Position numbers and translations under genes: made by a program. A model generated the notes under the pieces. The model did no database searches. It worked only from the letters and a program-made list of their open reading frames with translations, and was not told the origin of the DNA. A stretch of 51,410 nt of DNA from Macrostomum lignano (lineage: Eukaryota), in NCBI GenBank assembly GCA_002269645.1, contig NIVC01004296.1, positions 1-51,410 on the forward strand. Reading direction: 5' to 3'. Positions 18,402-21,400 of this stretch are shown here, piece by piece; position 1 is the first letter of the stretch; each line of letters opens with the position of its first letter.

Positions 18402-21400
18402 ATGTTCCTCCTACTGAACAACGGCAAACGCGAGCAGCAGCAGCAGCAGCAGACGCCGGAGCCAACTCAGTTCGGTCGTCAGGCGTTTCAATTTGACGTG
18501 GACGACAATTTCGACGCATCCTGGGACACGCCCTCGTCACCGATGCGTCGGCAACAGCAGCAGCAGCGGCGGCAGCAGCAGCAGCAGCAGCAACCAAAGT
18601 ACTATCCGGAGAATCATCCAATTCATCCAGAAGATGAACGACTCAACGTGAAATGGCCTGCAAAACGGGAGACTCGGGCTCAGCAACAGCAGCAGCAGCA
18701 GCAGCCGTCCAAAAGTAGCGGAGTGCAAGCTGGTGTTGGATCAGCTGATTCAGATGGATCTTTTGAGCATAGGTTTGTGGCTGTGACGACGTCGTAGGTT
18801 GGGAGTGAGGTGTATGCGAGAGTGAGGTGGGTGCAGGAGTGAGGTGGGTGCAGAGAGTGAGGTGGGTGCAGAGAGTGAGGTGGGTGTGGAAGTGAGGTGG
18901 GTGCCGGGAGTGAGGTGGGTGCCGGGAGTGAGGTGGGTGCCGGGAGTGGGCTGGCATGGGTGCCGGGAGTGAGCTGGGTGTTGCGGGAATGAGGTGAGTG
19001 TTGCGGGAGTGAGGTGGGTGCCGGTGATGTGTTCCTTATTACCCGACTTTCGATAATCAAGGAACAATCACTTCTAGCTCAGCAGCTAGGCAACCCAGTA
19101 AGTCAACAGAAGGTATTCAATTACCTTGAGTCCTTTGGAGATCTCTCGGAGTAGTTCTCGATTGTTTTCAGTTGCTCTCGTATAGTCACTTCTGACTTTC
19201 GTTTGTAGATCAGGTCCGATTCTTCTTTCTTCTTCAAATAGTTCCGGCCGGATTCTGTCGCTCGGACCAATGGGAAGCTTCCGAATTAACAATGGGATCC
19301 CTGCGCCAAACTGCGGTCTAAATTAAGCCTCCTTCTTCTAGCAGTGCCTCTATGCACTCTAGGTATAGCTCCGGAAACCACTGATAGTCCTCTAAGATCT
19401 ATCAGGGGCAGTCCTTCTGGAGACTGCAACCAATGGAGTCTAAACAGACTCAAGAGTCTCAACAGACTCAAATAGACTCAAGTCTCAATAGACTTGAGCG
19501 AGACGTCTCTAACACAACGGCGCAAATAAGGAAGGCTTACCGCAACAACTCGACCGAGTCTCGATTGACTTGGTATATCAGGAAGTCCTCCTAAGGCTTC
19601 CTCTTCGGAGCGCTCCTCTTCCGTGGGGAGAATGGCTCCGGTACCGCTTCAGATCGCTTGTATTTATAGGCAAGTTTTTGATCCAAAATAGCATCATTAC
19701 AATTCTCGTGTTGCGCTAAAAGGGGAAAATGGCTCATGGCGTATTATTCTGGTAACATCTTTTTCTGTTAGCTTGATTCATTCAAAGCTTAGGCGCACAT
19801 GCGTGTACTTACTTACTTATAGTAGCATTATACGATTATCTTCTTTTTTCTGTTTTTGCGGGAGGCAGAACACTCTACAAAATCTCCCTTTTTTACGAAA
19901 AACTCGTCCCGAGTTTTAACAATGAAATAATAAAATTTTGTGGTGATCAGTTAATATAGGAAATAAACAATTGATTTTGTGCGCGTCTAGAGAAGCGAGG
20001 GTTTGGTCAAAACTCTAAAAACTTTTCAGTACATATTGCGGTCAAAACTCGAATATCGCGTAGACATCGAGTGGCGTCAGGTTTGATACGACACCACTTT
20101 CGAAACGTGCAGTCTCGCGGCATACTATTACATAAGGGGCATCCTATAATGCCCCTACTAGCGGTTTGCTTCAAACAGTGCATGCAAATAAAATGTTGGT
20201 GGTTACAATATTGAAACGTACGCCAAGAATAACAATAGGCGCATTGTCGCAAACTATCTCTACTGACGTGACAATTCTGCCAGGGCTGAATATAGTGTGA
20301 ATTACTTAAACATTGTCCGCAAACTTTATGTCCATTGATGCAAATAGTCGGTGGCTTGACAGCCAAGTCATCAGCTAAACATATCGGGCAGTCATATAGC
20401 TGCTGAGGCTGGGGCGCCTGTTTCGACAGTGCGTTACCCATAATTGTCGTCAATTTGTCGCTGTCTTTGTGTCGCTCGGATTAGTCGCCTTTTACGACAA
20501 GCTTGCGAAGCTGTAGTGCTATTCTTTATCCCGGTCACTACACGGGGTTGTTCTCGAAACTTTAGCGTGGTCGTAGGTTGTAGCCATGTGGCTGGCTCAC
20601 ATCTGTCGTTTGAGTCTCCTTGTGCTTCGTCGCGATGTGGCGGTTCGTTGAACGCGTGCGATCCGCGTTGTCCAGTGACGGCAGAAATGTTGCCGTGTCC
20701 GTGTTAATCTTTTTTAGTCGATGGATGTGCACGTAGAACTGATGTTGGTGAGGATCTTGCACATTAGCCAAACGCGCCGTTGTCGGTGAAGTTAGTTGGA
20801 CCACTCGATACGGTCCTTTGTACTTCTGCGCGTGTTTATGCGTCTGCTGTGGCGGGTAGTGTAGGTAAACGATGTCGCCGGCCGTCAGGGTTGTCGATCT
20901 CGCGTCGTTGCCGGTGGTCAGAGCCACCTGGTTGTCAATGTTGTGCTTAGCGATCTTCCATGCGAGGTGTAGTTGCGTGACGAATTTCTGAATGGAAGTC
21001 GGTATCTCCACGTACTGCGATGGTAGCAATTGCTGTGCGAGCAGATTCGGCGGTTGGAAGTCTCGTCCAAACATTAGGAAGAATGGCGTATTGTCTGTTG
21101 ATCGATGAATAGCGCTGTTGTAGGCCATTGTTACAGATTGCAGGTAGATGATCCAGTCTTCCGGCTGTTGGTGCGCGAAATGTGTAATCATCTCGTGCAG
21201 GTTGCGGTGAAACCGTTCAACCATGTTTGCCTTCGGATTGTAGGTCGATGTGTAGATCTGCGTAATGTTGAGAATCTTTACGACTTGCTGAAACAGTTGA
21301 GACGTAAACTGCGATCCGTTGTCCGAGGTGAGGTTCTTCGGCGTGCCGTACTTGCAAATGATTTCGTTGAAGAAACTCATTGCCACTGTCTGAGCTGTGA

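Follow-up and report, generated by a model that had tools for sequence, protein, structure and literature searches.

Why would a retroelement of the flatworm Macrostomum lignano carry, behind its pol region, a short open reading frame (ORF) whose product combines a myristoylation-type start with two RING-type zinc-binding clusters? The ORF lies on contig NIVC01004296.1 of assembly GCA_002269645.1, of which the whole stretch analysed, 51,410 nucleotides long, is referred to here as the window. An initial annotation described it as an intact accessory gene in the place of env, resembling the arenavirus matrix protein Z, which might supply a membrane-targeting or matrix function in trans or, as a second option, act like an E3 ligase. 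The answer that emerges is a different one: the ORF is a truncated copy of the first gene (ORF1) of an accessory cassette of two to three tandem paralogues in a clade of GAG-ENV-POL errantiviruses. The full-length proteins of this cassette are, on balance, best regarded as E3-ligase-like accessory proteins that would act on host factors and that would be targeted to membranes in the clade of the window element.

The 144-aa reading frame with an ATG start and the beginning MGNALS is present as described, on the minus strand, and its parts are as follows:

20007..20441, minus strand: RING ORF1, truncated copy of 144 aa with the start MGNALSKQ (222 aa in full-cassette relatives)
20259..20390, minus strand: RING1, aa 18-61, C3HC4/SINA-RING-like (Pfam Sina_RING, E 0.0016), with the eighth ligand missing here
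20130..20243, minus strand: RING2, aa 67-104, with eight complete ligands and no linchpin Arg
19947..19992, minus strand: junction where, by blastn against the relative L021, ~1.1 kb is missing compared with full-cassette relatives (the end of ORF1 and the whole of ORF2)

The gene cannot be called intact, given that its relatives possess a 222-aa ORF1 and a second RING ORF and that ~1.1 kb is absent behind it here. Moreover, the eighth RING1 zinc ligand, kept in 22/22 close sister copies, is absent in the window copy alone, so that of the two clusters first noted RING2 stands with its eight ligands and RING1 falls short by one. The ORF terminates at the site of a W-P motif conserved in its relatives, and two close copies start with MS. 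The chances are even that this particular ORF is a functionless, decaying remnant whose own product may be inactive, a possibility compatible with the ligase interpretation of the full-length proteins. The missing ligand and the loss of both the C-terminal domain and ORF2 argue for it, as do the ORF1 lengths in the window subfamily (144 aa in 6/23 copies, 124 aa in 15/23, 113 aa in 1/23 and 81 aa in 1/23) and a second amplified family in which ORF1 ends at codon 70. Against it, stops cluster behind RING2 in 22/23 copies of the subfamily; the RING1 difference may stem from an error in this one assembled copy; and codons 1-110 compared with L021 give a ratio of nonsynonymous to synonymous substitution (dN/dS) of 0.25, a value which comes from small numbers (7 nonsynonymous and 7 synonymous changes) and may be inherited.

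The ORF sits between pol and the 3' long terminal repeat (LTR) of an element of ~10.6 kb on the minus strand, with the following architecture:

28772..29626, minus strand: 5' LTR, 855 nt, TG...CA, 99.88% identical to the 3' LTR (1 mismatch)
29410-29415, minus strand: TATA of the 5' LTR
28758..28769, minus strand: primer-binding site (PBS), a 12-mer identical to that of the Mlig_errantivirus_2 entry in the supplement of PMC13524379
20562..28058, minus strand: single Gag-Env-Pol ORF, 2498 aa
19883..19894, minus strand: polypurine tract (PPT)
19025..19879, minus strand: 3' LTR, 855 nt
19021..19024, with its partner at 29627-29630, no strand: 4-bp target-site duplication, inside a minisatellite

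LTRs, PBS, PPT and the order of protease, reverse transcriptase, RNase H and integrase, as typical of Ty3/gypsy errantiviruses, are all present; Pfam places zf-CCHC at residues 236-251 of the polyprotein, protease at 1330-1426, reverse transcriptase at 1654-1813, RNase H at 1878-2010 and integrase at 2102-2275. Database proteins of Macrostomum lignano match the element at 90-96%. Chary & Hayashi (PMC13524379) described GAG-ENV-POL elements whose env is of the gB type from nematodes, bryozoans and flatworms; their supplement includes Mlig_errantivirus_2, with 16 copies and the env class ENV_HSV. This entry shares with the window element the gag-env-pol order, the 12-nt PBS two bases behind the LTR and near-identical lengths (~10.6 kb, with LTRs of ~0.86 kb), and the window element very probably belongs to this HSV/gB-type family of GAG-ENV-POL Ty3/gypsy errantiviruses. 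Elements of this type are known to have an in-frame env between gag and pol, so that the RING ORF comes in addition to env and does not replace it; that it lies where env would lie holds as a statement of position only, an env-like region being already contained within the 2498-aa ORF. LTR pairs are 99.0-100% identical in 4 dated elements from full and truncated families, and several cassette-bearing families have been recently active. As a separate observation, a contig of run X1 joins the 5' LTR end to mid-env (25385-28772), skipping 3386 nt with non-canonical ends, and possibly represents an internally deleted copy.

When the same genome is considered as a whole, 142 matches to the RING ORF were found among 150 candidates scored. 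The cassette consists of two to three tandem paralogues of ~198-222 aa, each with the organization RING1-RING2-helical domain, located between pol and the 3' LTR: fuller relatives of the window element carry the 222-aa ORF1 followed by a paralogous ORF2 of ~210 aa, and more distant families, with pol 64-72% identical, have two or three RING genes in the order ORF1-ORF2(-ORF3). Among 36 further loci, 32 include pol or the PPT region of the element, and element DNA is matched by three of the four that do not; no intron-bearing host parent of the RING genes was seen among the fetched loci. A RING-free element whose 3' end is intact was not encountered, the three env-bearing copies that lack a RING match all being cut off before the cassette region. 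Truncated-cassette copies have 15 distinct 3' flanks among the 18 loci with flank read (L021 and L022 left out), and thus the full cassette is dispensable in cis for copying.

The cassette is under purifying selection, as emerged from the comparison across copies suggested at the outset: dN/dS is 0.13-0.24 for ORF1 in 4 unsaturated pairs (0.31 in a near-saturated fifth pair) and 0.13-0.23 for ORF2/3 in 6 pairs, the integrase giving 0.03-0.08 for comparison, and 5/16 pairs, saturated at synonymous sites, were set apart. Across 17 sequences of 20-85% identity, 15 zinc ligands or their neighbours are invariant. Cassettes have been swapped between families by recombination, since synonymous divergence between L021 and L032 is 1.4-1.5 in the cassette and 0.53 in the integrase, and the tail of the window ORF is nearest to L036.

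From a structural point of view, an AlphaFold model built with 17 sequences (pLDDT, the predicted local distance difference test, 88.9) shows a pair of zinc fingers followed by a C-terminal domain of five helices. The zinc ligands of RING1 are complete in 21 of the 22 complete rows of the family alignment, the remaining row having Gly at ligand 7, and those of RING2 in all 22. RING1 has an E2-facing hydrophobic residue after the start of its first Cys pair and ends in P-x-C-R, with the linchpin Arg that in RING E3s serves to activate E2~ubiquitin; this ending is found in 22/22 complete rows, down to ~20% identity, and in none of the 22 for RING2. Pfam Sina_RING is matched by 16/17 family members and is the sole Sina-related Pfam match, and the top matches in profile, Foldseek and VIA-align searches are cellular and viral RING E3s, all of them weak. 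The cassette thus resembles SINA/SIAH-type and other C3HC4 RING E3s, as well as viral ICP0, in its C-x3-H RING1 with the P-x-C-R end and in its best profile and fold matches. Unlike SINA/SIAH proteins, in which the zinc fingers are joined to a beta-sandwich substrate-binding domain, it has no such domain, the C-terminal half being all helical in the model, and carries a tandem second RING and the helical domain instead.

Homologue searches with the 222-aa protein and the family profile found no host parent gene or other homologue, and a full-library profile search returned 129 matches, 4 of them full-length and the others mostly single RINGs. The full-length ones are P0002, from the same organism, and P0003-P0005, on public contigs of 1-2 kb, these three being 30-42% identical to the nearest copy in the genome studied here. 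The RING family is therefore older than the copies of this genome. A tree of single RING domains (45 columns) left the branching unresolved.

Is ORF1, then, a Z protein? The spacing of RING2, C-x2-C-x8-C-x3-H-x2-C-x2-C-x11-C-x2-C, compares with x2, x9, x2, x2, x2, x10, x2 in the aligned Z chain, and the remark that it comes near that of arenavirus Z was accurate, the two being close and not identical. Searched alone, RING2 of the window finds Z of lymphocytic choriomeningitis virus (LCMV) in 2nd place of 18 PDB matches (E 0.098), beside TRIM56 and TRIM32; with three other members, Z comes 5th of 16 (E 0.36), is not among 25 matches, and is last of 11 for an ORF2 (E 4.8). For the family profile it is 57th of the 60 matches shown (E 0.14), and a structure search places LCMV Z 48th of 50 (Z score 3.7, root-mean-square deviation 2.5, 46 aligned residues), on RING1 and tied with many RINGs, and no Z is found among the Foldseek matches listed. 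Nor does the Z family occur among the Pfam matches of 17 members, Pfam presumably containing a Z model. The comparison with Z and cellular RINGs that had been proposed thus gives a divided outcome, RING2 alone ranking Z high and neither profile nor structure preferring it. RING2 resembles arenavirus Z weakly, tied with cellular RINGs, and nothing singles Z out among RING proteins; the reservation already made, that the likeness could be convergent, is favoured in the sense of convergent or generic RING likeness, with a remote common ancestry as a further possibility.

The N-terminus requires separate consideration. A start of the type MG-x-x-x-S goes beyond chance, since a myristoylation-type start occurs in 0/269 other ORFs of at least 100 aa in the window and the fetched loci (an MG start in 7/269), and as a sequence motif Gly2/Ser6 is kept in 49/54 ORF1 rows of the window clade. 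In the tree, the MG start is a gain in one ORF1 clade (support 100/99), nested among ORF1s without it; the remaining 18 of the 23 family rows do not have it, nor do any ORF2/3 or the three distant homologues. Families whose ORF1 lacks it share the Gag start and have LTR pairs 99-100% identical. Gag of the window element begins MARRNP, as stated at first, and 5/6 Gag copies read are without Gly2; a single copy (L024:7114, minus strand) has the start MGRRNP, in which Gly2 is followed by Arg and which is probably no myristoylation signal.

The polyprotein contains, for its part, several features relevant to membranes and budding:

26136..26219, minus strand: internal signal peptide or signal-anchor, aa 614-641, between Gag and Env, with basic residues followed by a hydrophobic stretch
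24423..26135, minus strand: Env-like ectodomain, a 570-aa region with 12 Cys and 6 N-glycosylation sequons
25206-25217, minus strand: furin site RRRR, aa 948-951
24330..24422, minus strand: Env transmembrane helix (TM), aa 1213-1243
24144..24200, minus strand: late-domain-like cluster LYPSI / PTAP / PPNY, aa 1287-1305, between the Env TM and the protease

The window element has the signal peptide, furin site and TM of an errantiviral Env between gag and pol, and an equivalent signal-anchor stretch is found in 5/5 related loci tested. Language-model (Atlas) neighbours of the Env region are class III viral fusion glycoproteins (0.85-0.87), namely GP64, rhabdovirus G and Monjiviricetes fusion clusters, which serve as leads only; the single-sequence fold model had a pLDDT of 33. 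The late-domain-like cluster contains the sole PTAP and the sole PPxY of the polyprotein, motifs which occur jointly in 11/20000 shuffles of the 82-aa Env tail; PTAP is kept in 7/8 related loci and YPxI in 8/8. Divergent families without a PPxY in the tail (L050, L129 and L130) have PPPY in Gag, directly ahead of the signal peptide, a relocation that is possibly compensatory. Budding would accordingly proceed through the polyprotein, with the internal signal-anchor keeping Gag and the Env TM keeping Pol at the membrane, and with the endosomal sorting machinery (ESCRT) recruited on the cytosolic side by PTAP, PPxY and YPxx, so that no separate matrix would be needed. In this way, anchors flanking Env, together with cytosolic late-domain motifs, offer a concrete answer to the matrix-free budding of GAG-ENV-POL elements.

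It is against this background that a Z-like matrix has to be judged, in which a myristoylated ORF1 would line the membrane, bridge Env and capsid, and drive or assist budding in trans. Arenavirus Z is a myristoylated protein of 90-99 aa with a single RING and C-terminal late domains (PMC3509680), and ORF1 has in common with it the Gly2 myristoylation motif, a flexible N-terminal arm and a similar spacing of RING ligands. The strength of the motif in the window clade, the rank of Z in two of the RING2 searches and the general lack of Gly2 in Gag all speak for such a role, as does the fact that Z of Tacaribe virus is able to bud although it has no classical late domains (PMC3509680). Nevertheless, PTAP/PPxY occur in 0/18 RING proteins (one YPxxxL-like match being present in one ORF3), and ORF1 differs from Z in having two RINGs, a length of 144 aa here and of 198-222 aa in full, about double that of Z, and a helical domain of ~110 aa, and in showing no late domains and no significant homology. 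Gly2 is confined to one ORF1 clade, within which two close copies start with MS, and the families without it have the same Gag start and LTR pairs 99-100% identical; moreover, foamy viruses release a non-myristoylated Gag in an Env-dependent manner (PMC7828637). The proposal of a Z-like matrix acting in trans therefore finds no support beside a polyprotein with its own signal-anchor, Env, TM and late-domain motifs, and we consider it very unlikely.

The way in which the cassette could be expressed is suggested by two signals:

20484..20546, minus strand: conserved structured RNA block of 63 nt, with a 4-bp stem whose loop pairs over 6-7 bp downstream (pseudoknot), followed by two hairpins
29282..29291, minus strand: candidate splice donor in the LTR, G/GTAAG, cut 29288/29287, as read from the sequence

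The RNA block begins 11-19 nt after the pol stop, ahead of ORF1, and is 75-95% identical between families, compared with 66-86% for the last 300 nt of pol and 45-58% for the adjacent linker. Its pseudoknot pairing of 6-7 bp is kept in 14/14 variants with three loop types and paired changes, these variants being related sequences that represent about two independent events, and a 7-bp match arises in 450/20000 shuffles. A CAG inside it (ending at 20511) is found in 10/10 ORF1 upstream regions, and no match to the block was found in Rfam or in viral or metagenome contigs. It may be an entry site, a reinitiation signal, a regulated acceptor or a nuclease block; ORF1 would be expressed through it by internal entry, reinitiation or use as a regulated acceptor. 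Separately, 31/40 scored genomic matches to the block are 100% identical over 81 nt. Expression of ORF1 by read-through of pol was ruled out by 2-4 stops and by the use of all three frames among 8 loci.

For ORF2, expression would instead depend on splicing, with the donor in the LTR joined to a CAG that directly precedes the ATG of the gene. GTAAG is present in 13/13 LTR variants returned, divergent families included, by a script whose pattern required GT[AG]AG, and the database gene model P0002, itself a prediction, joins the LTR donor to the ORF2 start. A YAG at 0 or -2 before the ATG is found in 8/8 second-position genes and in one further ORF2-type locus. The commonest cis motifs of the host are GT[G/A]AG and CAG, and spliced-leader trans-splicing and operons occur as well (PMC8629364). 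The acceptor initially proposed for ORF1, CTAAT at -43 with ACAG at -19, is not conserved, ACAG occurring in 2/10 ORF1 upstream regions, and the enrichment of CTAAY (8/24 upstream windows vs 18/176 background windows) is largely explained by CTAAY being the tail of the RNA block. No spliced retrocopies were found in the genome, 2 matches being donor point variants and 3 of a second pattern unrelated chance matches (control 9). In 4 runs presumed to be RNA, all 30 bins, the RING ORF included, are covered by contigs with sister-type letters, and no LTR-to-cassette joint is among the joints listed for these runs; both results are uninformative on transcription and splicing.

With these elements in place, the ligase interpretation can be stated and weighed as a whole. 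The full-length cassette proteins would be RING E3 ubiquitin ligases, in which RING1 would bind and activate E2~ubiquitin, RING2 would have a structural role or bind a partner, and substrate choice would fall to the helical domain, which evolves fast; the likeliest targets are host factors of restriction or silencing, as in the accessory genes of complex retroviruses. In the window clade, ORF1 has acquired an N-terminal arm of 17 residues bearing a myristoylation signal, which would place the ligase on membranes, the site of element assembly. The second option of the initial annotation, an accessory RING gene acting like an E3 ligase, is in this respect favoured, as a predicted activity. Several points weigh against it. 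Named E3s are matched weakly in both sequence and structure (best phmmer E 7e-4, no Foldseek match at E<=0.001, Z scores <=5.2); the helical domain, barely tested, is without an assigned fold; ligase activity, substrate and the protein itself are all predicted from sequence; and two truncated families have amplified successfully, so that the cassette could matter little. A YAG at the ATG is found in 0/5 third-position genes, which leaves the expression of these genes unexplained. A RING alone, finally, is no proof of ligase activity, since the RING of Z works as a binding scaffold (PMC3509680).

This last point leads to a non-catalytic RING scaffold, which would regulate the element's own cycle (reverse transcription, translation or RNA export) or sequester host E2/E3 proteins. 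The precedent of Z, the absence of a linchpin from every RING2 and the persistence of a truncated two-RING form of 113-144 aa in 22/23 copies of the window subfamily all speak for a scaffold, whereas a pure scaffold need not keep P-x-C-R, conserved in RING1 down to the most distant rows, and duplication together with evolution faster than that of pol fits host-facing genes; a scaffold is thus unlikely. Highly improbable is a more far-reaching scenario in which a negative-strand RNA virus was the source of the cassette, as of the class III env, with RING2 sharing ancestry with Z, and in which the myristoylated ORF1 of the clade, translated by pseudoknot entry, both lines particles and ubiquitinates host factors; were it true, the flatworm element would rank as a complex and infectious agent, similar to a retrovirus and equipped with a Z-type protein. 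The milder variant, an accessory E3 operon of two to three genes directed against host silencing and equipped with its own RNA element, is a serious candidate that falls somewhat short of an even chance.

As regards the genomic neighbourhood, the element is inserted antisense in a minisatellite, which seems to be intronic to a host coiled-coil gene on the plus strand, and the features around it are:

18402-18797, 30525-31124 and 31459-31824, plus strand: putative parts of the host coiled-coil gene (weak CCDC144C match)
12887-13354: NOT2/3/5 domain
35841-36143: PLAC8 protein
38694-39695: P-element-type transposase remnant
44253-44963: copper monooxygenase

Elsewhere in the genome, Polinton/adintovirus-like genes adjoin the cassette at L027:6410-9526 and L033:7769-9510 (an adenain-type protease by Pfam Peptidase_C5; capsid, ATPase and polymerase by eye only), and a restriction-endonuclease-like ORF (RE_Eco47II, E 3e-4) adjoins it at L027:5001-5558. 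A Polinton origin of the cassette was ruled out, since the RNA block ahead of it and the PPT region of the element behind it identify it as LTR-element DNA that lies within a nested cluster. Fragments of the element are densely clustered on contigs C2121, C1130, C87, C272 and C4009 (loci L022-L026, L033, L034 and L066-L075), with RING matches on one strand per contig (12/12, 7/7, 8/8, 4/4 and 5/5, respectively), which is the layout of flamenco-like uni-strand piRNA clusters. Contigs C2121 and C87 may be homeologous.

The element type itself is already published, and it is the 3' double-RING cassette that was not found described. Among the parallels are the planarian Burro/GYPSM1 elements of Arkhipova & Yushenova (PMC6431247), giant flatworm gypsy elements in which env likewise lies in frame between gag and pol and which carry accessory domains with links to ubiquitination and apoptosis (MATH/TRAF, BIR, BCL2, ubiquitin-like). 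Their extras lie mostly inside a polyprotein of ~5000 aa, whereas those of the cassette are separate, duplicated genes 3' of pol from one double-RING family. The ORF3s of bdelloid elements (PMC5408684) and the AlkB ORF of an orchid gypsy element (PMC9289625) are, like the cassette, non-env 3' accessory ORFs that were captured and kept under selection; they differ in being single ORFs, with an esterase, exonuclease or demethylase as cargo, and the available text on bdelloid LTR elements (PMC5408684) makes no mention of a RING. The main text of PMC13524379 does not contain the terms RING, accessory, myristoyl, ESCRT or late domain, and the 3' cassette, RNA block and late motifs go unmentioned there; no description of a tandem double-RING cassette in an errantivirus was found, the main texts of PMC13524379 and PMC12801592 included, whose figures or supplements may annotate it. 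Enveloped Ty3/gypsy elements have been viewed as simple three-gene agents, and to this picture the elements described here add a duplicated and selected accessory family of probable ubiquitin ligases. Together with its own expression signals, this family makes for an architecture like that of complex retroviruses, in a flatworm model that is ready for transgenesis; if the proteins are indeed ligases, the substrates on which they act would identify the host factors restricting retroelements in an animal lineage whose antiviral defences are poorly known.

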